From positions 1 to 21,495 of the IMG/VR virus record IMGVR_UViG_2778261537_000014: a DNA stretch of 21,495 bases. One strand, written 5' to 3'. Made by a program: the position numbers and the translations under genes. Every line of letters starts with the position of its first letter. Position 1 is the first letter of the stretch. Under the pieces are notes generated by a model. That model worked only from the letters and a program-made list of their open reading frames with translations. It did no database searches and was not told the DNA's origin. Below are positions 1-18,875 of the stretch, piece after piece. The stretch comes from a virus. Taxonomy: Duplodnaviria > Heunggongvirae > Uroviricota > Caudoviricetes.

Positions 1-690
1 TCAAACCAGCGTGATGCCTGAAAAAACTGGTGTTTGCTGGAATTCTCGGTTTAGCATTGCTCCTATGCTCGACCGGAAGTATTCCGCCTGGACTTTGGAG
101 GCAGACAGGAAGATTTGCGGATCGCCTGTCATGACCGCGTTTTCAAAGGCTTCAAATGCAAAGTACCAGGTGGCACCGATCTGGCGGCTTTTAAGGATGT
201 TCCTGACCTGCTGGCCAATGTTCCTGCGCAGGTGTTTCTGGTATTCAAAAAGATGTTCTTCCGCCCAGGCGTCAAAATCCGCCTGGGTCAGAGAAGAAAT
301 ATCGTTTTTCCTGTTTTTACGTTTGGGGCGCGGTTCATCGCTGTTGCTGTCCCGCGCAGCTGCCTGCCCGTTACTCTGGCCACTGGCCATCTTTTCTTTA
401 TGCTTATTGCTTTGAGCACGCAGCTTTGTGGCGTGAGCAATCAGCATGTCCATTTCTTTCAGGTCGAGATCGGTTTTGTTATCGCGGCTTGCCAGCAGCT
501 GGTAGCGGCGTTCAATTGCCTCCTCTGTGCTTTCAAAACTGAGTAAATCCGCCCAGCTGTATTTCTCAGCCCAGTAGTAAACGATCCGCGCATTCGGCAG
601 ATTTAATTCTGATGCAATTTCTTTTGGCGTATAGCGGCGCAAATAAAGTGCGCGGACAACGCCTTTTAGTTCTTCTGAGTATTTAGCCAT
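1..690 (-). CDS. Terminase ATPase (large) subunit, gpP-like, short 229-aa ORF (possible N-terminal fragment)
   Basis: Divergent from the gpO-like gene as in P2 (P leftward, O rightward). N-terminal HTH-like segment (YTPKEIASELNLPNARIVYYW) and a terminase N-terminal-like motif (KSRQIGATWYFAFEAFENAV). Minus-strand stop TGA occupies window positions 1-3, so the ORF is only 229 codons, far shorter than the roughly 590 aa I recall for P2 gpP. Confidence 0.55.
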   Translation of the reverse strand: MAKYSEELKGVVRALYLRRYTPKEIASELNLPNARIVYYWAEKYSWADLLSFESTEEAIERRYQLLASRDNKTDLDLKEMDMLIAHATKLRAQSNKHKEKMASGQSNGQAAARDSNSDEPRPKRKNRKNDISSLTQADFDAWAEEHLFEYQKHLRRNIGQQVRNILKSRQIGATWYFAFEAFENAVMTGDPQIFLSASKVQAEYFRSSIGAMLNREFQQTPVFSGITLV

Positions 691-742
691 GCGGATAATT
701 ATGCCGTGGCTGTTATGAAAAAACGGTGGTGTTAATTCGCGT

Positions 743-771
743 CTGTTCGGTAATACGTGATAACCGAACTG
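743..771. promoter_or_regulatory. Imperfect dyad (CTGTTCGGTAAT-acgtg-ATAACCGAACTG, 10 of 12 arm positions symmetric) in the divergent P/O intergenic region; candidate late-activator or operator site
   Basis: Read directly from the sequence. It lies between the divergent gpP-like start (690) and gpO-like start (852), where P2-like phages carry divergent late promoters. No canonical TGT-N12-ACA Ogr site was found in 691-851. Confidence 0.3.
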
Positions 772-851
772 TTCAGAATAAAGCGTGATGCGGTGGTGGT
801 TTTATTTGGCAATAATTGATTTGCAGCGTCGGTGAATAAATCAGGGGGGAT

Positions 852-1655
852 ATGTCGCATTTAAAAACTGACTGGCTGTGTGTTGCTACCGAAGGGGATA
901 CCGTTGATGGCAGAGATATTAAACGTCAGTGGATTATCGATATGGGGGAAACCTATGACTATAACCACTATGTCGCTCTAATCTGGCCAGAACACGAGGA
1001 TAATTGCGGTAATTTTGGGGAGGTACTGGAAGCCACCTGGCATGATGGTGAGGACGGACTGGCGCGGCTTTACGTCAGCCTTTGCCCGAATATGCGTTTA
1101 ATTTTCGCCAACCATGAAGATCAGCTCCTGTTCTTCTCGATTGAACCGGAAGAAAACTGGCGCGGTAGTGGGCGTACATACCTCAAGGGGCTGGCGGTAA
1201 CAGATACTCCCGCCAGTGTTGGCACCACACGGCTGCGCTTTAGTAGTCGGCGCAAAAAATTATCTAAGCAGGGATATTACAGTTGTGTGATTTCCCGTGA
1301 TGGAAAAATTAAACAGGAAATACGAATGAAGAACTGGCAAAAATTGTTTGGTATTAAACCGAAGTTTGAAGATGAAACGCCGCCTGATGATACCGCGCAG
1401 GGTGATGATAAGTTACAGGCGCTGGCCAACGCGGTAAACGAACTGGAAGGCCGTGTGGCCAAAATTGAAAATCAGCTGAATGATGTTCAGGGTGATGTGG
1501 ATACCATTGCGGAAGTGGTCGATACCGAAGAATTTGCGGCTATTCGTGATAATGCAAAAGATATTGTTAAACGTTTTAACGATCTGGGTAATAAATCCAC
1601 CCGTGCACCAGGACGCAAGATTTCAGAAAAAGCGGGTAAATTTAATTTCCTGTAA
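852..1655 (+). CDS. Capsid scaffolding protein, gpO-like
   Basis: 267 aa. SD GGGGGGA just upstream. N-terminal motif (VATEGDTVDGRDI...) and the motif YLKGLAVTDTPASVGT resemble P2 gpO (GVEGDTCDGR..., YLVGLAVTDDPASLGT). Position immediately upstream of the capsid gene. Confidence 0.8.
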   Translation: MSHLKTDWLCVATEGDTVDGRDIKRQWIIDMGETYDYNHYVALIWPEHEDNCGNFGEVLEATWHDGEDGLARLYVSLCPNMRLIFANHEDQLLFFSIEPEENWRGSGRTYLKGLAVTDTPASVGTTRLRFSSRRKKLSKQGYYSCVISRDGKIKQEIRMKNWQKLFGIKPKFEDETPPDDTAQGDDKLQALANAVNELEGRVAKIENQLNDVQGDVDTIAEVVDTEEFAAIRDNAKDIVKRFNDLGNKSTRAPGRKISEKAGKFNFL

Positions 1656-1716
1656 TACGTTCTGACGTTAATTAGTACAAAACATTTTTATTATCGCTTA
1701 ATCGCGAGGGAGTTTT

Positions 1717-2739
1717 ATGCACCTTAATAATCGTGCACGGGATTTACTGGATAAATATTCGAGTGGTATGGCGCAGCAGTTTGGCGCACGTGATACCAGT
1801 CGTTATTTCTCCCTGAATGACCCGCAGGAAAATGCGCTGCGTCTGGCGCTGCTGGAGTCCGTGGAGTTCCTGAACATGATCACCTGTCTGGACGTTGACC
1901 AGCTGAGTGGCCAGGTGATTTCTGTTGGTTCCTCCGTGCTGCATACCGGCCGCAGTGAAAATGGCCGCTTTGTTCGTCAGGTTGGCGTGGACGGCAATGA
2001 CTATTCACTGGTTGAAACGGACAGCTGCGCCGCACTGCGCTGGGATCTGCTTTCGGTCTGGGCCAATGCCGGTAAGGACGAAAACGAGTTTTACAACCTG
2101 GTCCAGGCGTTTACCACACAGGCGTTTGCGCTGGATATGCTGCGTATTGGTTTTAACGGTAAGAGCCGTGCCAAAACGACGAATCCAACGGATAACCCGA
2201 ACGGCGAAGATGTCAACATCGGCTGGCATGAGCGTATGAAAACGCTGCTGGGTGGTAATCAGATTATGACCGATCCGGTCGTGCTGGATGAAGCCGGGGA
2301 TTACAAATCACTGGACGCAATGGCTTCAGACCTGATTAACGCCAAGATTCCGGCACAGTTCCGCAATGACCCGCGTCTGGTGGTTCTGGTCGGTGCCGAT
2401 CTGGTCGCCGCTGAACAGTACAGACTGTATCAGGCCGCAGACCGCCCGACTGAGAAAATTGCGGCGCAGATGCTGGGCAGCACCATTGCTGGCCGTCCTG
2501 CTGTTATCCCGCCGTTTATGCCGGGTAAACGTATGGTCGTCACGCCGCTTTCTAATTTGCATATCTACACCCAGCGCAACACCCGCATGCGTAAGGCGGA
2601 ATTTGTTGAAGATCGTAAGCAGTTCGAAAACAAATACCTGCGCAATGAAGGTTACGCGGTTGAAGTGCCGGAGCTGTACGCGGCCATTGATGAATCCGCC
2701 GTGACCATTGGCAAGGTTTCCGAACCGGCAGAGGGCTGA
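1717..2739 (+). CDS. Major capsid protein, gpN-like
   Basis: 340 aa. SD GAGGGAG. Several blocks resemble P2 gpN from memory (IGFNGKSRAKTTNPTD..., GWHERMK, GDYKSLDAM, DPRLVVLVGADLVA, and a C-terminal ...TIGKVSEPAEG-type tail). Confidence 0.85.
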   Translation: MHLNNRARDLLDKYSSGMAQQFGARDTSRYFSLNDPQENALRLALLESVEFLNMITCLDVDQLSGQVISVGSSVLHTGRSENGRFVRQVGVDGNDYSLVETDSCAALRWDLLSVWANAGKDENEFYNLVQAFTTQAFALDMLRIGFNGKSRAKTTNPTDNPNGEDVNIGWHERMKTLLGGNQIMTDPVVLDEAGDYKSLDAMASDLINAKIPAQFRNDPRLVVLVGADLVAAEQYRLYQAADRPTEKIAAQMLGSTIAGRPAVIPPFMPGKRMVVTPLSNLHIYTQRNTRMRKAEFVEDRKQFENKYLRNEGYAVEVPELYAAIDESAVTIGKVSEPAEG

Positions 2740-2742
2740 TAG

Positions 2743-3444
2743 ATGGCACTTTCTCCCGCGCAGCGCCACAGCCAGCGCATTGCGATGGAACAAAAGCTGA
2801 AACGCAGCCAGGCACTGGAAACCACGGAAAGCATGCACCTGCTGATTAAGGCGCTTGAAGCGGATGTGGAACATTGCCGCAACCTGCCGACGATCGCGGA
2901 TCGCGTTGAGTTTAAGCGGGATGTGTTGCTGCCGCGCTGGACACCGACTGTGGAAGCCTATCTGGAAAGCGGGCAGGTGTACGCCAACCCGGTATTTGCC
3001 TGGTGTGTTATCTGGCTGTTTGACGTGGGCGATCTGGATAAGGCGCTGGACTGGGCTGACATTGCAATCAGCCAGCAGCAGGCAACCCCGGATCGGTTAC
3101 GCAGCAATTTTCCCACGTTCGTGGCCGATACGATGCTGGCCTGGGCGCAGGAAACATCGGGGCGCGGGGAAAGTGTTGAGCCGTATTTCTCCCGCACATT
3201 TGAGCGTGTCGCCAGTACCTGGCGGCTGCATGAACAGGTCACGGCCAAGTGGTTTAAGTTCGCGGGGTTGAGGCTGCTGCGCAGCGAAGATGGCCAGACA
3301 ACGGCTGCGAGTGTGGATGATATCGAAACGCTGGTGAAGGCTGATCGGTTGCTGGCCACCGCAGAAAAATACTATCTAAAAATCAGCGTCAAAACGGCAC
3401 GGCAGACGATTGCCGCCCGTATCCGAAAACTGACGCAGGGGTAA
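2743..3444 (+). CDS. Terminase endonuclease (small) subunit, gpM-like
   Basis: 233 aa. Starts 3 nt after the capsid stop. N-terminus MALSPAQRHSQRIAM resembles P2 gpM (MTSPAQRHMMRV...). Gene order O-N-M. Confidence 0.8.
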   Translation: MALSPAQRHSQRIAMEQKLKRSQALETTESMHLLIKALEADVEHCRNLPTIADRVEFKRDVLLPRWTPTVEAYLESGQVYANPVFAWCVIWLFDVGDLDKALDWADIAISQQQATPDRLRSNFPTFVADTMLAWAQETSGRGESVEPYFSRTFERVASTWRLHEQVTAKWFKFAGLRLLRSEDGQTTAASVDDIETLVKADRLLATAEKYYLKISVKTARQTIAARIRKLTQG

Positions 3445-3540
3445 AGACTACCGCAAGCCAGGCGGACGCGGTGGAGGGCAGAACACTCCGTGTGTCACTG
3501 TGCCGTGGAAACCGGTCAGTCCGCCTTTTTCGGGGGAATT

Positions 3541-3993
3541 ATGTTTAGCGGAAAACCGCTGGATTATCAGGATGAACCGCTGACGAATAACGGGTTCTGG
3601 CCGGATCTGAATCTGAAGGACTTTCAGGCGCAGCGGTCACTGCCAGCCGATATCGACGCAGACACCATCAGCCAGGCGCTGCTGGCCGCTGTCGCGGAGG
3701 TGAATGCCGAGCTGGAAAACGTGGAGGCCAGCTGGAAAGCAAAAGGCCACACGCTGGCAGCAGATGTTCCGGGCGTAAAAATGGGCGGGCTTAACAGTCT
3801 GTGTGCCCAGTACATGAAAGCGGTATTTGCCAGGGCAAAAGCGGATCTGCTGGGGGAGTTCGCCACTGTCGGGCGACGTGAAACCCATCCGGGGCAGGAG
3901 AGTATGGAAACCCGCGCCGGGTTACTGGCTGAGGCTTCAGTGGTTATCCGTCGCATGAAGGGGCTTAAACGGGCAACGGTGAAAAAAGTATGA
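3541..3993 (+). CDS. Head completion/stabilization protein, gpL-like
   Basis: Start chosen at the internal ATG at 3541 (SD GGGGGAA 6-8 nt upstream) rather than the ORF-track ATG at 3490. Motifs FWPDLNLKDF, EVNAELENVEA and AADVPG resemble P2 gpL as I recall it. Follows gpM. Confidence 0.75.
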   Translation: MFSGKPLDYQDEPLTNNGFWPDLNLKDFQAQRSLPADIDADTISQALLAAVAEVNAELENVEASWKAKGHTLAADVPGVKMGGLNSLCAQYMKAVFARAKADLLGEFATVGRRETHPGQESMETRAGLLAEASVVIRRMKGLKRATVKKV

Positions 3994-4496
3994 GCCAGAC
4001 ACAGCTTGAGAGCCTGACCGCATTTTTTCAGCAAAACGTGCCGCCGCGCGCCATGCAGTCATTTGACAGTGTGCTGGATGAAATGAAGTTCATCCCTGCC
4101 GCGAAGGATTACGGGCTGGGGCAGTACCGCCAAGCGGTGATTCGCTATGACGCGGTAATCAGCTGGCAGCGTTTCCCGTATCGCCTGTGTCCGCCGCAGT
4201 TGCTTATGTCACTGCTGGCTGCGTGGCTGGATGAGGCTGACAGGGAATTACTGGATGAAGTCGGGCTGACTGAGGCCGAACCGGACTGGGACGTGTCCGT
4301 GGAGGATGAGGAAACCGCCACCATTGTGCTGACGGTACCGATGGCGGAAGAACTGGTGATCAGGGAGGACGAACACGGGGCGATCCCGTGGCAGGGGAAA
4401 CGCTGGTCGCTGGTTAACCCTGAAGTCTGGATAGCGATCACCGCCAATATTTATGGCGTGGATGAAACCGGTGCGCCGGTAGGCGGTAACGAATGA
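3990..4496 (+). CDS. Putative tail completion protein, gpR-like
   Basis: 168 aa. ATGA start/stop overlap with the gpL-like gene. Position after the head-completion gene and a weak resemblance (LLMSLLAAWLDE versus the P2 gpR LLIVPVLAWLRE-type segment). Assignment is tentative. Confidence 0.4.
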   Translation: MSQTQLESLTAFFQQNVPPRAMQSFDSVLDEMKFIPAAKDYGLGQYRQAVIRYDAVISWQRFPYRLCPPQLLMSLLAAWLDEADRELLDEVGLTEAEPDWDVSVEDEETATIVLTVPMAEELVIREDEHGAIPWQGKRWSLVNPEVWIAITANIYGVDETGAPVGGNE

Positions 4497-5200
4497 TTGC
4501 CGGTGGCGAGTTGAATAAAAAACAGCTGGCAGAGTTGCGCAAATCACTGGCCAGCATGGAGCTGCCGCCCAAAAAGCGCCAGCGTCTTATCTGGAGGCTG
4601 GCCAAATACGGTGTGATTGCCGCCGCAAAACGGCATGTTCGCAATCAGGAAGCACCGGATGGCCAGAAGTGGCCGGGGCGTAAAACGAAGCGCAAAGGGA
4701 AGATGCTGCGGAACCTGCCAAAACTGCTGCATATCCGTGAAATGCCAGAAATTCAGGCGGTGCGGATTTATTTGCAGGGCGGTGGCTACCGGAACGGGGA
4801 AACGCCGGTACCGGCCGGGACAGTCGGATATGCGCAACAAAACGGGATGCGCGTCAGTGCCAGCCGTCGCAGCCAGCCACGGAAGGCGCAGGCCGGAAAA
4901 ATGGCCACGCCAGCCCAGGCCAAAAAACTGCGGGCGCTGGGGTACCGGGTACGCACCGGTAAACGCTGGAAAAAGCCCACGCTGGGCGAGTTAACCCAAA
5001 CGATGCCATACAGCCGGGCGGGGTTACTGATTCGAAAACTCAGCGGTAAGGCGGTGAAAACCAGCTGGACAGTGGATCTTCCTGCCCGTGTCTTTCTGGG
5101 CATGAGTGACGATGAATTTGATAACGCGCTGGCGCGTCAGCTTCAGGCCATCGGCTTTGGCTGGGATGTTAAGGCGCAGGATATTAAGGGGAAAGCATGA
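4493..5200 (+). CDS. Putative virion morphogenesis / tail completion protein, gpS-like
   Basis: 235 aa with a basic-rich central region. ATGA overlap with the upstream gene and with the downstream sheath-like gene. Call rests on synteny only. Confidence 0.4.
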   Translation: MIAGGELNKKQLAELRKSLASMELPPKKRQRLIWRLAKYGVIAAAKRHVRNQEAPDGQKWPGRKTKRKGKMLRNLPKLLHIREMPEIQAVRIYLQGGGYRNGETPVPAGTVGYAQQNGMRVSASRRSQPRKAQAGKMATPAQAKKLRALGYRVRTGKRWKKPTLGELTQTMPYSRAGLLIRKLSGKAVKTSWTVDLPARVFLGMSDDEFDNALARQLQAIGFGWDVKAQDIKGKA

Positions 5201-6324
5201 CCTGGCCAAACGTGACCGTGAACCAGGTAAACCAGTTGCTGGGTGAAACCAATGAAGTGGAGCGCACGCTGCTGTTTATCGGTACGGGTACCAAAAATGT
5301 GGGGAAAACGCTGGCAGTGAATGCCCAGAGTGATTTTGATGCACTGCTGGGAGAAGGGGAAAGCCCGCTGAAAAACGATGTTCTGGCGGCACTGGCAAAC
5401 GCCGGTCAGAACTGGTGGGCATTTATGCATGTGCTGCCCGCAGATGCTGAGGACGATGCCTGGGTGAAAGCGGTTCTGGCCGCACAGGTGGTGTGTTCGG
5501 TGGAAGGGGTGGTGCTGTCCAGTGATGTGACGGCAAAAGCTCAAGTGAATCAGGCGGCGACGTTACGATCCACGCTGATTTCCAAATATGGGCGCTGGGT
5601 GTGGTTCATCCTGGCCGTGCAGGGAATGCAGGAAGAAGAAGGCCAGGCGGATTACCTGACCCGTGTGTCTGCTATCCAGGACGGTATAGCAGAGAAGGCG
5701 GTGCAGCTGATCCCGCGTCTGTGGGGAAATGAGCCGGGTGTGCTGGCTGGCCGTCTGTGTAGCCGTGCCGTGACTATCGCAGACAGTCCCGCCCGTGTGA
5801 AAACCGGGGCGCTGCTGAATCTGGGCAGTGATGAAATGCCGGTTGATGGTACCGGAGCGGTACTGGAGCTGGCCACGCTTAAGGCACTGGAAGCGCAGCG
5901 CTTTAGTGTGCCGATGTGGTACCCGGATTATGACGGTTTTTACTGGGCTGACGGGCGAACGCTGGATGTGGAAGGCGGCGATTACCAGTCGATTGAAACC
6001 CTGCGTGTTGCCGATAAAGCGGCGCGTCGTGTACGTCTGCTGGCTATCAGCAAAATTGCGGATCGTTCACTCAACAGCACACCGGGCAGCATTGCTGCAC
6101 ACCAGACGCTGTTTGCACGTCCACTGCGTGAAATGTCCACAGCGGCCAGTATCAATGGCGTGTCATTTCCGGGGGAAGTGAAGCCGCCGCAGGATGGTGA
6201 TGTGATCATTGTCTGGAAGAACAAAAAGACGGTGGATATTTATCTGGTGGTACGCACCTGGGAAGTCCCGCTGCAAATCACCATCAGTCTGTTACTGGAT
6301 GCCAGTCTGGAGGCCGCTGCATGA
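5197..6324 (+). CDS. Putative contractile tail sheath protein
   Basis: 375 aa. Immediately upstream of a roughly 150-aa tube-sized gene and downstream of the completion genes. Size is comparable to P2 FI. Call is by synteny; no direct sequence match recalled. Confidence 0.55.
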   Translation: MTWPNVTVNQVNQLLGETNEVERTLLFIGTGTKNVGKTLAVNAQSDFDALLGEGESPLKNDVLAALANAGQNWWAFMHVLPADAEDDAWVKAVLAAQVVCSVEGVVLSSDVTAKAQVNQAATLRSTLISKYGRWVWFILAVQGMQEEEGQADYLTRVSAIQDGIAEKAVQLIPRLWGNEPGVLAGRLCSRAVTIADSPARVKTGALLNLGSDEMPVDGTGAVLELATLKALEAQRFSVPMWYPDYDGFYWADGRTLDVEGGDYQSIETLRVADKAARRVRLLAISKIADRSLNSTPGSIAAHQTLFARPLREMSTAASINGVSFPGEVKPPQDGDVIIVWKNKKTVDIYLVVRTWEVPLQITISLLLDASLEAAA

Positions 6325-6776
6325 GTAAACGTATTTCGGGTATGTCGTTTGATACCTATCTTGACGGCGATCTGATCCACATCGAGAAAATCACGCTCGA
6401 TATCACGGATAACAGCGCCGCCGCCCAGACCCGTGGTGTGCCGGATGGCCATACTGATGGCGATGTGGCCGCAGAGGGAGAAATTGAAGTCAGTTCCAAA
6501 GTGCTGGGCGTACTGACAGCCAAAGCCCGCGCCGCAGGTTCGTGGCGCGGTATTCCTCCACTGGATTTCCTTTTCTATGCCAAAGCGGGCAGCGAAGAAA
6601 TGAAAGTGGAATCGTTCGGCAACAAACTCCAGCTAAGTAATCTGCTGGATATCGATCCCAAGGGCGGCGGTGTGGCGACGCACAAAATCAAATATTTTGT
6701 GACCAGTCCCAAGTTCGTGAACATCAACGGTGTGCCGTATCTGGAAGCGGAAGCCACGGAAAACCTGATCGGATAA
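6321..6776 (+). CDS. Putative tail tube protein
   Basis: 151 aa. ATGA overlap with the sheath-like gene. Size and position are consistent with an FII-like tube protein. Confidence 0.5.
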   Translation: MSKRISGMSFDTYLDGDLIHIEKITLDITDNSAAAQTRGVPDGHTDGDVAAEGEIEVSSKVLGVLTAKARAAGSWRGIPPLDFLFYAKAGSEEMKVESFGNKLQLSNLLDIDPKGGGVATHKIKYFVTSPKFVNINGVPYLEAEATENLIG

Positions 6777-6786
6777 GGAAGCCGGA

Positions 6787-7089
6787 ATGCAGGAACATGA
6801 AAAGAGCCTTTATTCACTGCTGATTATGGGGGCGCTCATTGCTGTTGCGAAGGTGCTGGCCAGTGATGATCCCATTACACCGCGCCTGTTTATCAGCCGT
6901 GTGATCCTGGGCAGTTTTGTTTCAGTCATCGCTGGCGCGGCGCTGATTCAAATCCCGGAGGCCAGCCCGCTGGCTATTCAGGGGCTGGGGGCTGCGCTGG
7001 GTATTGCTGGTTATCAGGCTGTTGAAATGTGGCTGCGCAGACGTGCAGCGGGAAAGAAGAACGGGAGCGTGACAAATGACCCTGAGTGA
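6787..7089 (+). CDS. Holin
   Basis: 100 aa with three hydrophobic helices (LYSLLIMGALIAVAKVLA, ISRVILGSFVSVIAGAALI, LAIQGLGAALGIAGYQAV) and a charged C-terminus. Strong SD AGGAAG 5 nt upstream. Directly precedes the endolysin. Confidence 0.7.
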   Translation: MQEHEKSLYSLLIMGALIAVAKVLASDDPITPRLFISRVILGSFVSVIAGAALIQIPEASPLAIQGLGAALGIAGYQAVEMWLRRRAAGKKNGSVTNDPE

Positions 7090-7417
7090 AAAGCAGCAAC
7101 TGTTTACCGTCATGGTGGCCAACCTGATCCACTGGGCGGAAGAACGAGGCTACCGGCTGACGTTTGGTGAAGCGTACCGCACCCCGGAACAGGCGGCGCT
7201 GAACGCGAAGAAGGGCAGCGGCATTTCTAACAGTCTGCACACCCAGCGTCTGGCCGTGGATTTTAATCTGTTTGTGAATGGCCAGTACCAGACCCGTACA
7301 GAGGACTATCTGCCACTGGGTGAATACTGGGAATCACTGGGCGGAAGCTGGGGCGGGCGCTTCAAATCCAGACCGGATGGTAATCATTTCAGCCTGGAAC
7401 ATAACGGGGTGCGCTGA
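7076..7417 (+). CDS. Endolysin, peptidase M15 family (zinc D-Ala-D-Ala carboxypeptidase / L-Ala-D-Glu peptidase-like)
   Basis: 113 aa. Metal-ligand-like pattern SLHTQRLAVDF ... GGSWGGRF ... DGNHFSLEH, typical of the M15 H-x6-D...H-x-H arrangement. SD GGGAG 8 nt upstream. Overlaps the holin stop. Confidence 0.8.
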   Translation: MTLSEKQQLFTVMVANLIHWAEERGYRLTFGEAYRTPEQAALNAKKGSGISNSLHTQRLAVDFNLFVNGQYQTRTEDYLPLGEYWESLGGSWGGRFKSRPDGNHFSLEHNGVR

Positions 7418-7797
7418 TGAGTCACGCGCAGTGGCTGGTTGTGGTGGCGCTGGCGTTTGTCTGGGGCTGGCTGACAGCTGACTGGCGGCGCGACAGTCTG
7501 GAGCTGGCAATCAATACGGCGGCGCAGGTGGCTGGTAATGAATCGCGAAAGGTTATGCAGGGCATTGCCAGTGATTCCGCCAGGGCGCTGGAAGATAAAC
7601 TGGAGGCGCTAAGAAATGCGCAACCGCGAGAGATCCGCACGGAAGTGCTTAAGCCGGTTTTTACTAACAGGTGCCTGTCTGATGAGTTTGTCAGCATGTA
7701 CAACAGCGCCGTCGCCGGTACCGAACGTGCGTTATCAGGAAAACCTGAAAACACGATGCGCCACGCAGCTGCCGCGCCTGAACGGGGCAACAGGTAA
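7417..7797 (+). CDS. i-spanin, Rz / LysB-like
   Basis: 126 aa with an N-terminal transmembrane segment (WLVVVALAFVWGWL) followed by a charged, helical periplasmic region. Start shares one base with the endolysin stop (TGATG). Contains an embedded lipoprotein ORF in another frame. Confidence 0.6.
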   Translation: MSHAQWLVVVALAFVWGWLTADWRRDSLELAINTAAQVAGNESRKVMQGIASDSARALEDKLEALRNAQPREIRTEVLKPVFTNRCLSDEFVSMYNSAVAGTERALSGKPENTMRHAAAAPERGNR

Positions 7798-7915
7798 AGA
7801 TGCAGCGGAACTGCTGACTGTTTACCTTGAAATATATGGCCAGTGTGCGGCGCGTCATAATCAGTTAGTCGATGAAATTAATTTAAGAGAACGTGTTATT
7901 TATGGAACAAATTAA
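7616..7915 (+). CDS. o-spanin, Rz1 / LysC-like outer-membrane lipoprotein (overlapped architecture)
   Basis: ORF in the +1 frame starting inside the Rz-like gene and running past its stop. Lipobox L-S-A-C after a signal-like segment (FLLTGACLMSLSAC) and a Pro-rich mature N-terminus (CTTAPSPVPN). GGAGG about 10 nt upstream of the ATG. Confidence 0.55.
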   Translation: MRNRERSARKCLSRFLLTGACLMSLSACTTAPSPVPNVRYQENLKTRCATQLPRLNGATGKDAAELLTVYLEIYGQCAARHNQLVDEINLRERVIYGTN

Positions 7916-8159
7916 ACTGAGCGTTTGTGGTGCAGATATTGTTTTTGAACCTAATCAGACTGCTTACAATAAACTGATTAATGAAATGGCAATGGATAAT
8001 AAAGTTGCACCTGCAAATAATTATCTGATGCGTATTGTTACCCCAGAAACGAAAGAAGCACTGATTGACGTATTAAAACGTCCGGGTGCAGCGTTGCAAC
8101 TGGTCAGTAAGGTTAATGATATTTACGCGCCGGAACTGGAGATTGAAGTAAAAAACTGA
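7902..8159 (+). CDS. Tail assembly chaperone (P2 gpE / lambda gpG analogue), zero-frame product
   Basis: Small acidic protein immediately upstream of the tape measure gene. ATG at 7902 is preferred over the ORF-track GTG at 7893. Ends at TGA 8157-8159, directly after the heptamer A_AAA_AAC. Confidence 0.65.
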   Translation: MEQIKLSVCGADIVFEPNQTAYNKLINEMAMDNKVAPANNYLMRIVTPETKEALIDVLKRPGAALQLVSKVNDIYAPELEIEVKN

Positions 8160-8350
8160 CAAAGCGAGTCCATGATATTGAACTAAATGGACTCGAACAG
8201 TATTTAATTCTCCGTCGTCATTATTTACCACATGGCCAGGATTCCGTTGACGATATTGCCGCCGCTATATGGCTGGATAATCGTCACTGGGAATATACGG
8301 GAATAGCCGTAGCTAATGGCGTGGCTAAAGCATTTAAAGGCACTGAATGA
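7902..8350 (+). CDS. Predicted -1 programmed-frameshift fusion chaperone (E+E' / G-T analogue): slip at A_AAA_AAC (8150-8156), then -1 frame open from 8156 to TGA 8348-8350
   Basis: Read directly: the -1 frame after the slippery heptamer has 64 sense codons (LTKRVHDIELNGLEQYLILRRHYLPHGQDSVDDIAAAIWLDNRHWEYTGIAVANGVAKAFKGTE) and ends in ATGA, overlapping the tape-measure start codon at 8347. No start codon exists for this frame. Confidence 0.6.
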
Positions 8351-10314
8351 AACAGTTAGATTTTACATTAAGCCTGATTGATAAATTGTCCCGCCCGTTA
8401 AAACAGGCGCAGGGCAGCGTAACGGGCTTTGCTGAAAAATCAAAAGAAGCCTTTATGCAGATTGGCGGCGGCGTTCTGGGGCTGGCGGGCACAGGGATGG
8501 CCATTAAAGGTGCGCTGATGCCTGCCATTGAAATGTATGACGCGCTGAATGATGCGGCCGCAAAAGGGATCGATGATTCTGCGCTTAAAGCCGTTCAGCG
8601 TGATGCGCTGCGCTTCAGTACAACCTACGGCGCCAGTGCGGTGGAGTTCGTCCAGTCCACGGAAAGTATAAACGCCTCCATTGCCGGACTGACCGGGAAT
8701 GAACTGCCGAAAGTGACGAAAGTCGCCAATACCCTGGCGTTTGCGCTCAAGTCCACCGCAGTAGAAACCGCTGAGTTTATGGGGCAGATGTTCGGTAACT
8801 TTTCCGCCGATGCCAACCGGCTGGGGAAGGTTGAGTTTGCTGAACAACTGGCCGGAAAAATGGTGTTCATGCGCAAAACCTTTGGCACGGAAATGGCCGC
8901 TATCAAGGATTTGATGGAAGGGGCGCGCGGCGTGGGTACTAACTACGGCGTGGGGCTGGATGAACAGCTGGCCGTGCTGGGACAGCTACAGCGGACACTT
9001 GGCACAGAAGCCAGCAGCGCTTATGAGGGCTTTATGACAGGAGCCATTGAGGGCGGTAAAAAGCTGGGGCTGTCCTTCACGGATTCCACCGGCAAAATGC
9101 TGTCCATGCCTGAAATGCTGATCAAGTTACAGGGCAAGTATGGCAAAAGTCTGGAAGGAAATCTGAAGGCCCAGGCTGAACTGGATGCGGCATTTGGAGA
9201 CAGTTCGGCGGTGGTTAAACACCTGTACGGTAATGTGGCATTGCTTCAGCGCAATATCACCGAGCTGGGCGGTGCAGATGGCCTGAAGCGTACCCAGGAA
9301 ATGGCGCAGAAAATGGTGAAGCCGTGGGATCGCTTTGTCGCAATCCTGAAGGCTATCCAGACCGTAATCGGCCTGACGCTGATCCCGGTGCTCTATCCGG
9401 TTCTGAACCGCCTGGCTGATATGGGGCAGACTTTTGCCCGCTGGATGCAGTTGTTTCCCAACATTGCGCGTGTTGTCGGGTATGCGGCAATGGCCTTGCT
9501 CAGCTTTGCGGCTGTGGGTGCTGTCGCCAATATTGTGATGGGGGCCTCTAAATTCATCATGATGGGGTTGCGCGGGATCTGGGTGGCGCTGATGGCCGTC
9601 ACGAAAATTTACACCGCCACTGTCTGGCTGGGAAACATTGCCGTTGTTGCCTGGAACGCCACGCTGAAATTTCTGCGCGGTACGTTGCTGGCGGTTCGTA
9701 TGGCGGCAATGATGGCCGGGATAGGTATCAATCTGATGAGCTGGCCGATCCTGCTGGTGATTGGTGCCGTCGCCTTACTTGCTGCCGGTTGCTGGCTGCT
9801 GATTAAACACTGGGACACGGTAAAGAACGCGGTCATGGATACCGCTGCATTTCAGGCATGCGCCAGGGTAGTGGAATGGCTGGCCGGGGTGTTTACTTCA
9901 GCCTGGCAGTTTATCAGCGAAGGATGGAACAGTTTTATTTCCATGCTGACCGGGTTTTCTCCTTCACAGGCATTAAGCGGTCTGGCCACGGGTATTGTTT
10001 CGTTGTTTGATAATGTCTGGCTGTCCGTTAAAAACGGTTTTCTGAAGTCGTGGAACTGGATTGTTGAGAAACTGAATAAAATCCCCGGTGTGGATATATC
10101 AATGGCAAGTACCACTTCACCACCATTAACTGGAAATACGTTGTCAACGGGTGGAGAGATAAAAGGAATTGATAAGGGCGGGATAAATAAAACAATCAGC
10201 AGCAATTCTAAATCAGTCACTGATAACAGCAAAAAAATAGGGGAGGTTCATTTCCATACCAAAGAAGCGATGTCCCCTGGTCAGTTAATGGAATGGCAGG
10301 AGCTAAATGCGTGA
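8347..10314 (+). CDS. Tail tape measure protein
   Basis: 655 aa, Ala/Gly/Leu-rich with a long central hydrophobic block (for example VLYPVLNRLADMG ... WPILLVIGAVALLAAGCWLLI). Sits immediately downstream of the frameshifted chaperone pair. Confidence 0.8.
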   Translation: MKQLDFTLSLIDKLSRPLKQAQGSVTGFAEKSKEAFMQIGGGVLGLAGTGMAIKGALMPAIEMYDALNDAAAKGIDDSALKAVQRDALRFSTTYGASAVEFVQSTESINASIAGLTGNELPKVTKVANTLAFALKSTAVETAEFMGQMFGNFSADANRLGKVEFAEQLAGKMVFMRKTFGTEMAAIKDLMEGARGVGTNYGVGLDEQLAVLGQLQRTLGTEASSAYEGFMTGAIEGGKKLGLSFTDSTGKMLSMPEMLIKLQGKYGKSLEGNLKAQAELDAAFGDSSAVVKHLYGNVALLQRNITELGGADGLKRTQEMAQKMVKPWDRFVAILKAIQTVIGLTLIPVLYPVLNRLADMGQTFARWMQLFPNIARVVGYAAMALLSFAAVGAVANIVMGASKFIMMGLRGIWVALMAVTKIYTATVWLGNIAVVAWNATLKFLRGTLLAVRMAAMMAGIGINLMSWPILLVIGAVALLAAGCWLLIKHWDTVKNAVMDTAAFQACARVVEWLAGVFTSAWQFISEGWNSFISMLTGFSPSQALSGLATGIVSLFDNVWLSVKNGFLKSWNWIVEKLNKIPGVDISMASTTSPPLTGNTLSTGGEIKGIDKGGINKTISSNSKSVTDNSKKIGEVHFHTKEAMSPGQLMEWQELNA

Positions 10315-10640
10315 ATGAACCACTTTATATAGATTTGCTGATCCTGAAGGGTGATTTTGTTCTAAACACCGGATATGAACCTGAACTGTGTAATAACCGT
10401 AAAAGTATCGGGCAGGACATTATTCACGCCATTATTGAGAGCGGACTGGCAACGGAACTGATTGCTGAACGCAGCCCAACAATGCGGGCGGATATTTTTA
10501 CCCGTATGGAATTATTGATTGAAGATGATGAACGGATTATTCCGGGAACTGTAGAAATCAGTGAGAAAAGCCAGAAACGTTTATGGATAACTGCCAGCAC
10601 CTATGACTTGGGCGGAATTTCTGCGCAGGTGGATTTATGA
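10293..10640 (+). CDS. Putative baseplate wedge protein, gpW / gp25-like
   Basis: 115 aa, the same length as P2 gpW as I recall. Position immediately upstream of the baseplate J gene. Start is ambiguous: ATG 10293 (overlaps the tape-measure end) or GTG 10311 with GGAG 8 nt upstream. Confidence 0.5.
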   Translation: MAGAKCVNEPLYIDLLILKGDFVLNTGYEPELCNNRKSIGQDIIHAIIESGLATELIAERSPTMRADIFTRMELLIEDDERIIPGTVEISEKSQKRLWITASTYDLGGISAQVDL

Positions 10641-11821
10641 CGGAAAAACCGCAGGTTGATTTTGAAGAAGTGGTGAAAGCCAGCGGGTTGCCGGTGACGG
10701 AATCGGAAGTGCGCGAACGCTTCAATGCGATAGCGGCCGAGGAAGGGATCATCACTAACACATCCCGCATGTCACCGTTCTGGCGTCTGATTACGGCCAT
10801 TGTGACGGCACCAGTGATGTGGCTGAAGGATGTTCTGGTATTCACCGTGCTGGCCAATATGTTTGTGGCCACGGCCAGCGGGAGCATGTTGCGTCTGCTG
10901 GCCTGGGCGGTAAACGTCACGGCAAAGCCCGCCAGTGCTGCTCAGGGGGTGATCAGGTTCTTTAAAGAAGATGCCAGAGCCGTGGTGACGGTGAAGACCG
11001 GAACGGTTATCCAGACTGAACGCATCAACGGCCGGGTGTATGAGCTGGCGACCACTGACGATGTGGTGATCCCATCCGGCACTGCCAGTGCATTGCTGCC
11101 GGTGAAAGCCACCGGAACCGGGGGAGCCTATAACCTTGCACCAGGGTATTACCGCATTCTGCCGGTGGCCGTGGATGGTATCAGCCATGTGGCCAGTGAG
11201 GAAAACTGGCTGACAGTGCCGGGTGCCGATGAAGAAAGTGATGATGAACTGCGTGAACGCTGCCGCAACCAGTTCAACCTGGTGGGCAATTACCACACGG
11301 ATGCGGTTTACCGTTCAATGATTGCTGGTGTTGCCGGGCTGAGTATCGACCGGATTTTCTTTGAGCATGAAGCGCCGAGGGGACCGGGTACAGCAAACGC
11401 CTATTTATTGCTGGACAGCGGGGTGGCTTCCGCGCCGTTTGTGAATGCGGTGAATGACTACATCAACACGCAGGGGCATCACGGCCACGGTGACGATATG
11501 CAGTGTTACGCCATGCCGGAAACCCTTCACGATCTGGCCGTGACGGTGTACGTCAGAAATCTGACCAACCTGACAGACGACGAACAGAACAACCTGAAGA
11601 ACGGGATTGAAAACCTGATCCGCTGTGCTTTTCGTGAGAATGCAGATTTTGACGTCAGAAAGACGTGGCCATATTCGCGTTTCTCGTTTTCTCAACTGGG
11701 GCGCGAGATCCACAAAACCTTTTCGCTGGCAGATTCACTGTTCTTTTCTCTGGGTGACATTACCAGTGAGCTGAATGTGCCGCGCCTGAAATCACTGGTA
11801 GTGAGTCTTGAGAATGAATGA
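10637..11821 (+). CDS. Baseplate assembly protein J (Baseplate_J family)
   Basis: 394 aa. ATGA overlap with the upstream gene. Central region (VVTVKTGTVIQTERINGRVYELATTDDVVIPSGTASALLPVKATGTGGAYNLAPG) is typical of baseplate J proteins. Followed by a gpI-like gene. Confidence 0.75.
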   Translation: MTEKPQVDFEEVVKASGLPVTESEVRERFNAIAAEEGIITNTSRMSPFWRLITAIVTAPVMWLKDVLVFTVLANMFVATASGSMLRLLAWAVNVTAKPASAAQGVIRFFKEDARAVVTVKTGTVIQTERINGRVYELATTDDVVIPSGTASALLPVKATGTGGAYNLAPGYYRILPVAVDGISHVASEENWLTVPGADEESDDELRERCRNQFNLVGNYHTDAVYRSMIAGVAGLSIDRIFFEHEAPRGPGTANAYLLLDSGVASAPFVNAVNDYINTQGHHGHGDDMQCYAMPETLHDLAVTVYVRNLTNLTDDEQNNLKNGIENLIRCAFRENADFDVRKTWPYSRFSFSQLGREIHKTFSLADSLFFSLGDITSELNVPRLKSLVVSLENE

Positions 11822-12401
11822 GTTCATGAAAAAGCTGACCGGGATGGTGCTTCCTTCCTGGATGAATCGGGGAGAGCCGAACAAGCTGCTGAAAACAGCC
11901 CGGCGATTCTGGGCGGAGGTTTACGGCTGGATAACATGGCCGATGAATCAGTTTGATCCGCTGACCTGCACCCCGGCATTGCTGAACCTGCTGGCCTATG
12001 ACCGAGATATTACCCGTTTTGACGGGGAGCCATTGAGCCTGTTCCGCAAGCGCGTGGCGTACGCCTTTATTAATGCGCGTGATGCCGGTTCGGTTGAGGG
12101 ATTTATCAATATCTTTGAACGGTTGGGCATTGGATATGTGGAACTGCTGGAGCGCCAGCCGGGGATCGACTGGGACGTGATTCAGGTACGTGTCACTGAT
12201 AGCCAGGTTTCGGACAACACGCAACTGATGATTCAGATTATCCGTAAGTACGGGCGAACATGCCGCCGTTATCAGTTTGAAGTGATTACATCAGAGAGCC
12301 TGGCAATTCGGGCGGGATGGGATCAGGGGGAATATGTGGTTTATCCGGCATCATTAAGCGGTACGGAAACACCCAGCGCGACATTCAGCGCGGGTTTGTA
12401 A
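11814..12401 (+). CDS. Tail protein I, gpI-like
   Basis: Motif DPLTCTPALLNLLAYDRDITRFD resembles the P2 gpI NPDTCPAALLPWLAWALSVDRWD-type signature. ATG 11814 overlaps the J stop (ATGAATGA); the ORF track used TTG 11808. Confidence 0.8.
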   Translation: MNEFMKKLTGMVLPSWMNRGEPNKLLKTARRFWAEVYGWITWPMNQFDPLTCTPALLNLLAYDRDITRFDGEPLSLFRKRVAYAFINARDAGSVEGFINIFERLGIGYVELLERQPGIDWDVIQVRVTDSQVSDNTQLMIQIIRKYGRTCRRYQFEVITSESLAIRAGWDQGEYVVYPASLSGTETPSATFSAGL

Positions 12402-12411
12402 GGAGTTTTAT

Positions 12412-13959
12412 ATGTCACAGACAACGATAACGCTGGCGTTTGAGCAGTGGAAAGCGAAACAGGGTACTACGGGTGAGCCTGTTCTATTGGATGAATTTGT
12501 TTTTGCCAGTGTGCCGGGGCTAGACCCTGATGCGCCCATTGATCGGGCTGAGGTGTTGCCGCCTGAATCGCAGATTGTTCATCGCCAGGCAGTCAGCCGC
12601 AAAGGCGTTGTAAATAACAACGCCGTGGTGCATTCCGCTGTTCTGGGCGCTGATGTGGGCGATTTTTCGTTTAACTGGATTGGGTTGGTTAACAAGGCCA
12701 GCGGCACACTGGCAATGATTGTTCATGCGCCGGTACAACAGAAGCTGAAAACAAAAGAAGGGCAGCAAGGTAACGTTCTGACCCGTTCTTTTTTGATGGA
12801 ATACAACGGCGCACAGGCTGAAACCGGAATTAATACACCGGCTGAAACCTGGCAGATTGATTTCACGGCGCGTATGGCCGGAATGGATGAGCGCCAGCGC
12901 CTGGAAAATGTTGATATTTACGGCGCAGCGGCATTCTTTGGGGACGGTTATCTGGTCGGGAAAACGGGTAATCAGTTTTTCGTCACCAAAGGCACCGGAT
13001 ATGTGGCGGGGCTGCGTTCTTCACTGGTTGCAAATCAGGATATTACCGTGACAACTAAGCCTGTAAAAGTCTGGCTGGATGTGTGCTGGACTGGGACGTT
13101 GACTGGTGTCTGGAATGCGCAGAGCAAAATTACTGTAGCGGAAAAACTGACTGATTATGTGCTGGGTGGGGTGCAACATTATGTTTTTGCGCTCGCCAGT
13201 ATTGATTCAGATGGCAATATCACGGATTTACGCCCAAAGGGTACGCTGAATGAACAACAGGCTACTGATGCGCTTAAAAGGCATGAGCAATCCCGGAATC
13301 ACCCCGATGCTTCAATCACAGAAAAGGGGTTTGTACAGTTAAGCAGTGCAACGGATAGCAATTCCGAAAAACTGGCCGCAACGCCCGCTGCGGTTAAGCA
13401 GGTTAACGAGAACGCCAATAAAAGACAGCTGGCGAATCCTCTGTTAACTGCACTTGCCAATCTTGCCACGCAAAAGAACATGTTTCCGTGGTTTACCGGG
13501 GAAAATACCGTTGCTACCAGTGCACTGACTGAATTTGCCCGTGAATTGCTTAGTAAAGGTGATGTGGCATCGGTTCTCAGGCATCTGAAACTGGGGAACG
13601 CCGCTACAAAAGATGTTGGTGTTCTGCCCGGGCAGGTGTTACCCGCGACAGCGTTTACTGCGCATTTGTCTGGATCGGGAATGTGTAAATTCCCGGTTCA
13701 GGCAACATCCGGAGCGTTTATTAATCTGATTTTTATGTGGGGCGTTACCAGTACCCCACCTGGTTCTTCTGCTGGTTACAATTTCCACACGGCTTTTCCC
13801 TATGCCTGTCTGATGGCTATGGGGTGTCGCGGGGCGGATGGTACGAATGCCAGTATGAATGTCAGGGCGCATAACAACACAACAATGATTATTCAGAACT
13901 GGGCACCAGTGGGGTCCGGTTACTGGGAAGACTGCATTTGGTTTGCAATTGGTTACTGA
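12412..13959 (+). CDS. Tail fiber protein, gpH-like
   Basis: 515 aa. Perfect SD AAGGAG. Internal block HEQSRNHPDASITEKGFVQLSSATDSNSEKLAATPAAVK closely matches the P2 gpH repeat HEQSRRHPDASLTAKGFTQLSSATNSTSETLAATPKAVK. Divergent C-terminal domain. Confidence 0.85.
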   Translation: MSQTTITLAFEQWKAKQGTTGEPVLLDEFVFASVPGLDPDAPIDRAEVLPPESQIVHRQAVSRKGVVNNNAVVHSAVLGADVGDFSFNWIGLVNKASGTLAMIVHAPVQQKLKTKEGQQGNVLTRSFLMEYNGAQAETGINTPAETWQIDFTARMAGMDERQRLENVDIYGAAAFFGDGYLVGKTGNQFFVTKGTGYVAGLRSSLVANQDITVTTKPVKVWLDVCWTGTLTGVWNAQSKITVAEKLTDYVLGGVQHYVFALASIDSDGNITDLRPKGTLNEQQATDALKRHEQSRNHPDASITEKGFVQLSSATDSNSEKLAATPAAVKQVNENANKRQLANPLLTALANLATQKNMFPWFTGENTVATSALTEFARELLSKGDVASVLRHLKLGNAATKDVGVLPGQVLPATAFTAHLSGSGMCKFPVQATSGAFINLIFMWGVTSTPPGSSAGYNFHTAFPYACLMAMGCRGADGTNASMNVRAHNNTTMIIQNWAPVGSGYWEDCIWFAIGY

Positions 13960-13960
13960 G

Positions 13961-14407
13961 ATGATGATGACTGACAAATACCGTTTTTCCGGCAATATTT
14001 TTTACCCATATTCCAGTAAAGCTGATTTTGATGCTGCCGGAACATGGCCAAAATCCGGCGTGGATGTGGATCTGACTACTTATCTGACTTTTATTCAGCC
14101 ACCTCCGTTTGGAAAGTTGCTTGGTACCGACAAAAAAGGCGCGCCATGCTGGATTGATATTCCGCCATTAACGCGCGAACAATTGATCACCCAGGCTAAG
14201 TATGAGAAAAGCCGCCGCCTGGATGAAATTAATATGTTCATCAATGACAGGCAGTGGCTGGGTAAGGCGGTGCTGGGCCGTCTTACTGACGACGAAAAAG
14301 AACTGTATGGGAAAGCCCTGGATTACCTTGATGAACTTAGCGCCTTGGATCCGCAAGATATGCCAGACAACTGGCCGGAATTTGAGGGATTTACCAATGT
14401 GGCGTGA
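13961..14407 (+). CDS. Tail fiber assembly chaperone, gpG / Tfa-like
   Basis: About 148 aa, immediately downstream of the tail fiber gene. Start is at the ATGATGATG run just after the fiber stop. Confidence 0.65.
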   Translation: MMMTDKYRFSGNIFYPYSSKADFDAAGTWPKSGVDVDLTTYLTFIQPPPFGKLLGTDKKGAPCWIDIPPLTREQLITQAKYEKSRRLDEINMFINDRQWLGKAVLGRLTDDEKELYGKALDYLDELSALDPQDMPDNWPEFEGFTNVA

Positions 14408-15122
14408 AGCACGTCTGGCCTTCACTGACTCACTGACAGCACTGAATTGTTCGGTCGTTCCGGCGCATCCGTGGATAAACGGACTGGGGCAACAAACGGA
14501 TAATGGGGCATATCTCAGTCCGGTTAATGCTGTCCGCTATCTTGCTGAAAGGCTTGCCGGAACGGGGGGGAATACCGATGTGATGATCATGATGGTGACT
14601 GGTCAGACGCATGAAAACTTTATTACCCGCCTCAACGGTCTGGTAGATGTTTTTCCGGCACCGGCTTTCACTCAGGTCAAGCGCCTGGCGCAATCCGCCG
14701 CGGCGCTGGCCATCGAAAAAATGCAGATCCCTGCGAAAACTGGGGCAGGGTTACCGGTTGCCATTCCTCTGTCGGTGCCAACCACCAGGGCGGCATTGTC
14801 AGCTGCGGCTGTCAGCCAGGCACAAAAAGCGGCCAGCGCAGGTTTCAGCCTGGGCGGGTTAAAGCAGCAACTGGGGGAATTCACGCAGCTGCGTGAAAAA
14901 CTTATCGGTGATGTGGCCAGCGGGCTGGACGATTTACAGGGAAAAAGCGCCAGAGCCTGGGTGTTTACGAGCAACGGCAACACAGCCACCACGCTGCTGG
15001 AGCTGGTAAAAGATATTCCGCAGCCATCAGCCGTTTATGCAGCGGCAGTGATGCTGGTTGGTGACAATCTGGATGGAATAAAGGGAATGATTCATGACTT
15101 CGATCCCAATACTGGCGCTTAA
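14397..15122 (+). CDS. Hypothetical protein (241 aa), function unknown
   Basis: ATG at 14397 with SD GAGGGA 8 nt upstream, overlapping the Tfa-like stop. Ala/Leu/Gly-rich; no motif recognised. The ORF-track start at 14202 is rejected as an upstream extension. Confidence 0.5.
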   Translation: MWREARLAFTDSLTALNCSVVPAHPWINGLGQQTDNGAYLSPVNAVRYLAERLAGTGGNTDVMIMMVTGQTHENFITRLNGLVDVFPAPAFTQVKRLAQSAAALAIEKMQIPAKTGAGLPVAIPLSVPTTRAALSAAAVSQAQKAASAGFSLGGLKQQLGEFTQLREKLIGDVASGLDDLQGKSARAWVFTSNGNTATTLLELVKDIPQPSAVYAAAVMLVGDNLDGIKGMIHDFDPNTGA

Positions 15123-15639
15123 CGGCGAGGCCATACCGCTGAAAAACATGCGTGTGACTGTATCGCAGCAGTTTCAGGATAAAGACCAGTCCGGCCAGAC
15201 AAGCGCCACAACCAAATCAGAACAGGGGGCAAAGGGGAAAGAGCTGCGTATCAGTGGCGAAATTCCGTTTAAAAGCCCGGAGATCCTGAAGCGTATTTTT
15301 GAACTGGCCAGCGCCACGGATGCCGGAGGAAATCGCCAGAAATACCGCGTGGCGCATGAAGTGGCCAGAGCCGTGAATTTTCGCGAGGCGACATTCAGCG
15401 GGATGCTTGATGCTCCGCAGCAGGACGGGAAAATGGCCTGGCTGGTTACGTTCACCCTGGCGGAACATATCAGCGTGCAGGAAAAGCGGGAAGCCAGGGC
15501 AACAGGCAAAACGTCTGCCAAAAAACAGACTGCCGGTAATGCGGGACAATCTGGCGGCCAGAGTGCCGGAGAAGATGAAGAAAAACTGACGTGGTTTGAA
15601 AAACGGGTGCTGAAACCCGTCAATGATGCTTTGGGTTAA
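15094..15639 (+). CDS. Hypothetical protein (181 aa); possibly a gpU-like tail protein by position
   Basis: SD AAGGGA 7 nt upstream. Overlaps the upstream ORF by 29 nt. Low-complexity Gly/Ser/Gln/Ala-rich stretch near the C-terminus. No family recognised. Confidence 0.45.
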   Translation: MTSIPILALNGEAIPLKNMRVTVSQQFQDKDQSGQTSATTKSEQGAKGKELRISGEIPFKSPEILKRIFELASATDAGGNRQKYRVAHEVARAVNFREATFSGMLDAPQQDGKMAWLVTFTLAEHISVQEKREARATGKTSAKKQTAGNAGQSGGQSAGEDEEKLTWFEKRVLKPVNDALG

Positions 15640-17342: not shown

Positions 17343-17352
17343 CTATCCCTTC

Positions 17353-17378
17353 AGCCCGCGCATAATGCGGGCTTTTTT
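17353..17378 (+). terminator. Rho-independent terminator closing the late/tail operon
   Basis: 7-bp GC-rich stem AGCCCGC / GCGGGCT with 7-nt loop GCATAAT, followed by TTTTTT. Lies 11 nt after the hub-spike stop codon. Confidence 0.75.
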
Positions 17379-18638: not shown

Positions 18639-18720
18639 CGCTCTGTCGCCATTTTGTCGCCACACTCGTTAAATGTGTGCTCTAAACGGTTGATTCGAAA
18701 GGGGCTGAATTTCAGGCAAC

Positions 18721-18763
18721 AAAAAACCCATCAACCTTGAACCGAAATGGCGGGGTTGATGGG
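18721..18763 (-). terminator. Probable rho-independent terminator downstream of ybjL (minus strand)
   Basis: Perfect 10-bp inverted repeat CCCATCAACC / GGTTGATGGG (18727-18736 and 18754-18763) with a 17-nt loop. On the minus strand the stem is followed by TTTTTTG. Lies about 110 nt beyond the ybjL stop. Confidence 0.5.
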
Positions 18764-18875
18764 CTCCACAAAATGGGGACATCAAAGAAAAGCAGTGGCA
18801 TTAATTAAGACTGATGCCCTGCGGAAAAGTTCTGCGGTTGTGCAAAAAAATTTCATTTTCAGGGCAACTTCAGTT

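Follow-up and report, generated by a model that had tools for sequence, protein, structure and literature searches.

Results

Organization of the analysed region and of the truncated terminase gene

The window, i.e. the whole stretch of DNA that was analysed (21,495 nt), carries the greater part of the late genes of a P2-like prophage, together with the adjoining chromosomal segment of its Escherichia coli host. Both ends of the window are gene boundaries, formed by the stop codon of a truncated ORF on the left and by the start codon of grxA on the right. Since the window was cut at such boundaries, the location of this stop codon at its very edge, to which the original prediction had drawn attention, is not a biological feature.

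The truncated ORF (window 1..690, minus strand) starts with an ATG at 690-688, ends with a TGA at 3-1 and comprises 229 codons. The ORF list and the Pfam search confirmed its predicted composition of an HTH-like, gpP-type N-terminus and the beginning of an ATPase region: the gpP-type N-terminal domain (Terminase_5, PF06056) was placed at residues 13-63 (E=1.2e-11, above the gathering score), and the Terminase_6N domain at residues 164-214 (E=1e-9), where only positions 1-56 of the 215 in the profile are matched. The ATPase domain typical of P2-family TerL proteins (Terminase_6N, with Walker A and Walker B) is incomplete in this ORF, which ends 33 residues past the Walker A segment KSRQIGAT. 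The nuclease domain Terminase_6C (PF17289) was detected neither in the ORF by Pfam nor anywhere in the window by tblastn.

Comparison by BLASTP with the intact 591-aa terminase of the JNE25-001 prophage revealed that residues 1-207 are identical at 206 of 207 positions, after which the two sequences diverge abruptly. The ORF is composed of a truncated gpP/TerL gene, 22 foreign codons and a fortuitous TGA. Its genuine terminase part, delimited by megablast and alignments to codons 1-207 (71..690, minus strand), encodes the gpP-type N-terminal domain, a linker and Walker A (KSRQIGAT), but neither Walker B nor the remaining ATPase, nor any of the nuclease domain, and represents 35% of a P2-family large terminase. 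With the nuclease absent and the ATPase largely lost, the predicted product cannot cleave or translocate DNA, as judged from its domain content and the established biochemistry of terminases. Nor is the lost part encoded elsewhere in the window: with the full-length protein as a tblastn query, no match past residue ~207-222 was obtained, and an analogous search with a portal protein revealed no homologue of the latter in the whole window. The 229-aa ORF therefore has neither the length (~590 aa) nor the portal gene directly downstream that are expected of a TerL gene.

Intact relatives of the terminase

Among phages, protein identity is highest (80-88%) with ESSI2_ev129, ev015 and ev040 of Escherichia and ESSI-2 of Cronobacter (Peduoviridae, Quadragintavirus). 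In these phages the large terminase gene has 1776 nt (591 aa), with the portal gene behind it; the same 591-aa gene is present in three E. coli prophages (JNE25-001, EC42405 and EcPF15). The likeness of the truncated gene to P2-family gpP is evident from residues 1-207, which share 88% identity with the phage proteins and 99.5% with an E. coli prophage copy, as well as from its divergent orientation relative to the scaffold gene (GPO), as in the Peduoviridae relatives. It differs from them in the loss of the nuclease and the greater part of the ATPase, and in its last 22 residues, which are foreign.

We considered whether the 229-aa protein might be a normal, functional form of a split or minimal terminase, as had been suggested. 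The best 120 homologues from a search of 5.8 billion proteins, which lists only full-length cluster representatives and hides fragments inside their clusters, are all 583-639 aa long and carry all three domains (PF06056; Terminase_6N, PF03237; PF17289), in agreement with the expectation that P2-type gpP proteins are far longer than the window ORF. The 229-aa sequence itself is recorded from one contig only, as a fragment within a cluster of 1212 members whose representative has 591 aa. Since the relatives are of 583-639 aa and the short form was seen once, such a terminase is not normal in this lineage. This explanation, against which the antisense origin of the last 22 residues (see below) also speaks, is refuted and deserves hardly any credence.

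The resident prophage and its chromosomal site

The rest of the late arm (852..17342, plus strand) was identified by Pfam labels, gene order and megablast. It encodes scaffold (GPO), major capsid, small terminase, head completion, tail, lysis, tape measure, baseplate and fibre proteins, and both the gene order and the ORF sizes match those of the JNE25-001 prophage. Window positions 71-17694 are collinear with that prophage (87-97% identity by megablast), with no match over ~13311-14396, i.e. the distal tail-fibre and fibre-assembly region, and over a short stretch at the holin gene (6843-7072). The tail fibre has 515 aa in the window versus 682 aa in JNE25-001, a difference typical of mosaic host-range variation. 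Apart from part of the tail-fibre region, the late arm thus appears to be intact. The idea of a domesticated, particle-producing element is not borne out by these data, as the remaining 17 kb of head, lysis and tail genes, except for that part, follow an intact relative collinearly (87-97% identity). Because of this collinearity of the remaining late genes, which a single recent event would leave undisturbed, we consider that the disruption is probably recent and not the outcome of long-term domestication.

The right boundary of the prophage lies at the RybB sRNA gene (18718..18796, minus strand; Rfam RF00110, 105 bits). Alignment with the rcdA-rybB region of E. coli K-12 and with attL of the EcPF15 prophage identified the right-hand attachment core as AACAAAAAACCCAT (18718-18731), at the 3' end of rybB; prophages of this type integrate at the rybB terminator. 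To the right of rybB follow the chromosomal genes ybjL, ybjM and grxA. A prophage of the same type occupies the same rybB/ybjL site in EcPF15, where the terminase gene is full-length and the left side is bounded by rcdA and the integrase gene. The EcPF15 prophage (NZ_CP054227.1) lacks, at 24691-24957, a stretch of ~12 kb that reaches from the gene for the small terminase as far as those for the baseplate, which constitutes an independent route to a defective prophage within the same lineage. The related JNE25-001 prophage is located between mntS and mntR.

The last prophage gene before the attachment site (18024-18638, plus strand) encodes a 204-aa ORF without a Pfam match; weak PADLOC matches to PDC-M14B (E=4e-5) make it a candidate component of a defence system. 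In relatives, this position is occupied by other cargo, namely PIN, STAS and ATP-binding genes (JNE25-001), a PIN-domain gene (LR-51) or two hypothetical genes (EcPF15).

Origin of the foreign DNA

The DNA that follows terminase codon 207 (window 1-73, plus strand) is a phage-borne copy of the 5' end of dusA (dusA nt 33-105), recognized by sequence identity and by its adjacency to integrase genes. It corresponds to the attachment-site arm that lies on the integrase side in lambdoid phages integrating at dusA, and, when read antisense, provides the final 22 codons and the stop codon of the 229-codon ORF; the last 22 residues of the predicted product are hence antisense dusA-arm sequence. Identity of the segment reaches 98.6% with the dusA start that adjoins a prophage integrase gene in E. 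coli E2863, whereas it is just 80-90% with the native dusA of most genomes, and dusA of K-12 differs from the segment at many positions. The source contig (NMHQ01000026.1 of assembly GCA_002511735.1) extends 42 bases past the stop codon of the ORF, all of which belong to the same arm, so that the contig begins 10 nt upstream of the dusA ATG. Over its first 115 nt, the contig shares 99.1% identity with phages 1720a-02 and SKA5, 97% with Lys8385Vzw and 93% with mEp460. In SKA5, Lys8385Vzw and mEp460 the arm is placed directly beside the integrase gene, next to which there is a dinI-like gene. The phage records matching the arm are those of full-size lambdoid phages (37.6-51 kb).

The presence of an element-borne replacement of the dusA 5' end is characteristic of dusA-specific integrases (Farrugia et al. 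2015, PMC4482086), and the arm found in the window is such a replacement copy. An origin from a native dusA fragment, displaced by chromosomal rearrangement, was rejected on the basis of the identity of the segment to the phage arms (98.6-99.1%) and its greater divergence from K-12 dusA. The insertion of an IS element was also dropped as a candidate, since window 1-73 matches dusA and not an IS end. Integration of the P2-like phage itself at dusA was likewise rejected: its own right end lies at rybB next to ybjL, and its relatives reside at rcdA/rybB or mntS/mntR, with an integrase of their own.

The identity of this DNA bears directly on the cause of the truncation. The short length of the ORF is all that favours a point mutation or a sequencing error (frameshift or nonsense) within a complete gene, and this explanation is refuted by the finding that the DNA past codon 207 is dusA arm with no terminase in any frame; we regard it as extremely improbable. 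The proposal that the gene is disrupted and the prophage defective therefore holds as regards the disruption and the lack of a working large terminase, but not as regards a frameshift or nonsense mutation as the cause. The missing terminase domains, sought upstream of the window in another frame, are not found in the 42 bases available there, which are further dusA arm.

The fusion has also generated a by-product ORF on the plus strand (11..415 in the window; listed as 'MMPEKTGVCWNSRFSIAPMLD...'). According to the ORF list, the contig start and the E2863 dusA start, it consists of 35 codons of phage-borne DusA N-terminus that are fused in frame to the antisense of the terminase remnant. Starting at an ATG 31 nt left of the window, this ORF totals ~149 codons. 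This ORF may be expressed: if the promoter of the arm, which normally drives the rebuilt dusA, is active, antisense transcription would run over the remnant towards the divergent late-promoter region (691-851).

The recombination junction

The junction (65..73, plus strand) was compared base by base with attP, attB, attR and attL. In the phages considered here, an 8-bp block, ATGCTCGA (window 65-72), is identical in all four sites: attP of SKA5 and mEp460 reads ...GCTCCT ATGCTCGA TAGGATGTACCG..., attB of K-12 ...GCACCA ATGCTCGA CTGGACGGACAG..., attR of E2863 ...GCTCCT ATGCTCGA CTGGACGG... and attL of CFSAN061769 ...GCACCA ATGCTCGA TAGGATGTACCG.... As it is the sole block common to all four att sites, strand exchange is assigned to ATGCTCGA. 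The corresponding sequence of the window is ...GCTCCT ATGCTCGA CCGGAAGTATTCC..., where the phage arm ends exactly at ATGCTCGA, as it does in the att sites, and is followed by terminase sequence. Both the arm and the terminase target contain the trinucleotide GAC (window 71-73).

At the breakpoint, the intact terminase gene reads GACG ATGTAAGA CCGGAAGTAT, with ATGTAAGACCGGAAGTAT as the target sequence. Over 18 nt, attP and attB share 14 positions, 10 of which are also found in this target, and within the overlap block the agreement is 5/8 (ATGTAAGA versus ATGCTCGA). When both strands of the intact JNE25-001 prophage were scored, only 12 of 64,166 positions equalled the target, placing it in the top 0.02%. 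The target is therefore a plausible pseudo-site, albeit not a unique one, given that about 1 in 5,000 positions match the core equally well. Because the break falls at the exact crossover block and the target resembles the core, the junction is most readily ascribed to the integrase of the phage itself and not to random breakage, point mutation or an assembly error. The site is a secondary one, since the DNA past the block is not dusA but the terminase gene of the rybB/ybjL prophage, a locus ~1.27 Mb from dusA in K-12 coordinates.

Distribution of the junction

The last 27 nt of the arm were found in 55 IMG/VR contigs, where they lead into dusA (49 contigs) or the partner arm of attP (5), or stop at the contig edge (1); in none of the 55 does the arm run into any other sequence. 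Use of secondary sites must thus be rare, as all 49 integrated copies of the arm in IMG/VR are in dusA. The window junction was absent from 5,426 complete E. coli genomes, IMG/VR, the GTDB species representatives and the JGI metagenomes. When window positions 1-1700 were compared by megablast with the same 5,426 genomes, 29 near-full matches were obtained, all of which begin at position 70/71. A pattern scan of IMG/VR revealed no reciprocal junction, and a literature search for assembly accession GCA_002511735.1 returned nothing. The observed distribution looks like a one-off use of a secondary site and not like an evolved, recurrent target.

Such rarity, together with a junction only 115 nt away from where a draft contig ends, would also be compatible with a chimeric read, or a mis-join during assembly, that masks an intact gene: the 229-aa protein comes from a single contig, and the junction occurs nowhere else among the collections searched. 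However, random chimeras would not favour a join within a few bases of the att crossover block, nor a target resembling the att core, and the sequence shared by the two partners, merely GAC (or ATG...GA), is too short for a k-mer mis-join. Moreover, the contig is continuous across the junction, with no branch leading into the remaining terminase sequence. An artefact of the assembly or the library is thus very improbable.

Discussion

The comparisons above show where the truncation lies, what the foreign DNA is, that it is joined at the crossover block and that the target resembles the att core. Taken together, these findings argue for an event in which a dusA-type temperate phage integrated at a secondary site within the terminase gene of the P2-like prophage residing at rybB/ybjL, which we consider the probable explanation. 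The starting point would have been an ordinary 591-codon large terminase gene of the Quadragintavirus/ESSI-2-like type in an E. coli rybB/ybjL prophage. A second temperate phage, a lambdoid one whose normal target is the 5' end of dusA (with mEp460, SKA5, Lys8385Vzw and 1720a-02 as relatives), would have used its tyrosine integrase to recombine with the att-core look-alike inside this gene, splitting it after codon 207. The window would then represent the integrase-side (attR-like) junction, composed of the dusA 5' copy, the ATGCTCGA crossover block and the terminase remnant, whose translation would run 22 codons into the antisense strand of the arm until a chance TGA, resulting in 229 codons.

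This model also predicts the structure of the DNA beyond the contig, which covers the integrase-side junction only and ends 115 nt into the arm, before the integrase gene or the phage body. The whole phage would be located to the left of the window, and the missing two-thirds of the terminase gene beyond that phage. Leftwards from the junction, one would expect, in turn, the remaining dusA arm, an integrase gene with the lambdoid prophage, the reciprocal junction, and finally terminase codons 208-591, portal, ogr and the early region. The reciprocal junction should read ...TTGACGATG(TAA or CTC)GATAGGATGTACCG..., i.e. ...ATG[TAA/CTC]GATAGGATGTACCGTTTTTG..., and should contain the other arm of attP (TAGGATGTACCGTTTTTGAAAAAC...).

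The same junction at the crossover block, and the same resemblance of the target to the core, would also result from an integrase-mediated event other than simple insertion, in which attR of a nearby prophage, or of one at a rearranged dusA, recombined with the pseudo-site, so that the intervening DNA was deleted or inverted; in this case the P2-like prophage would no longer have its left arm (the 3' part of the terminase gene, portal, ogr, replication and integrase genes) in place, the arm having been lost or moved. The break of the contig within the arm suggests that the arm is repeated in the genome, e.g. in a second, related prophage at dusA, and thus hints at the second copy from which such an event could start, while the EcPF15 prophage demonstrates that large internal deletions do occur in this lineage. 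However, this scenario needs an additional prior integration that was not observed. Relative to the plus strand of the window, ybjL, ybjM and grxA are oriented as in K-12; the dusA arm lies on this strand as well, like dusA in K-12. As the sites are directly oriented and 1.27 Mb apart in the K-12 gene order, recombination with an attR at the true dusA would be expected to cause a deletion of more than 1 Mb, removing essential genes such as dnaB beside dusA. A rearrangement of this kind therefore seems rather unlikely, and the insertion of a circular phage genome, which needs no such loss, is the simplest account.

The case is of value mainly for annotation. The 229-aa "terminase" should be annotated as a pseudogene fragment and, unless the insertion is lost, this copy of the prophage should count as packaging-defective despite its full set of head and tail genes. 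The domain content and the apparent integrity of the late arm suggest that the P2-like prophage is probably defective for packaging only. It is conceivable that precise excision of an SOS-inducible dusA-type phage would rebuild the terminase gene, so that the insertion acts as a reversible switch, or that the Peduoviridae terminase gene is a recurrent secondary target, but we regard either possibility as highly unlikely. If the switch did exist, packaging by the P2-like prophage would be tied to the induction of the dusA-type phage, in a manner resembling the delay that helper-embedded satellites impose on a late gene of their helper. What is known about terminases is left unchanged by this case. 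The cutting of a prophage gene by another mobile element is an ordinary kind of event, and the twist lies in the use of a secondary site by a dusA-targeting phage. The junction provides a base-resolved example of a dusA-specific integrase apparently acting at a non-dusA site inside another prophage, and as such it bears on the formation of nested prophages and on the target strictness of these integrases.

The integration of temperate phages at secondary attachment sites is a classical phenomenon of phage lambda. It is also referred to in a recent study of satellites (PMC10111431, refs 33-34). The junction described here resembles such cases in its position at the phage att core and in the partial similarity of the target to that core; it differs from them in being known from one junction in one draft genome, where the activity of the integrase at the site is predicted.

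Among the elements encoding dusA-specific integrases (PMC4482086), the closest parallel is the replacement of the dusA 5' end, which in the window stops at the crossover block that also bounds it in attP and attR. The difference concerns the recombination partner, which is not dusA but a prophage terminase gene. Members of this integrase family have also been found at the non-cognate sites dusB, rluA and abgT (Farrugia et al. 2015, PMC4482086).

The third system with which the locus can be compared is represented by the helper-embedded PICIs, satellites residing inside late genes of prophages, including a terminase gene (Tommasini, Mageeney & Williams 2023, PMC10111431). In both cases a mobile element occupies a late gene of a resident prophage, and production of the intact late protein would require its excision. 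The helper-embedded PICIs, however, are ~11-kb satellites that have a dedicated integrase clade and regularly target the late genes of lambdoid helpers (PMC10111431). As judged from the arm and the junction, the inserted element would not belong to that group of small satellites with their separate integrase clade and recurrent site: its arm matches that of full-size, dusA-targeting lambdoid phages, the prophage hosting it is P2-like, and the event is apparently unique among the collections searched.
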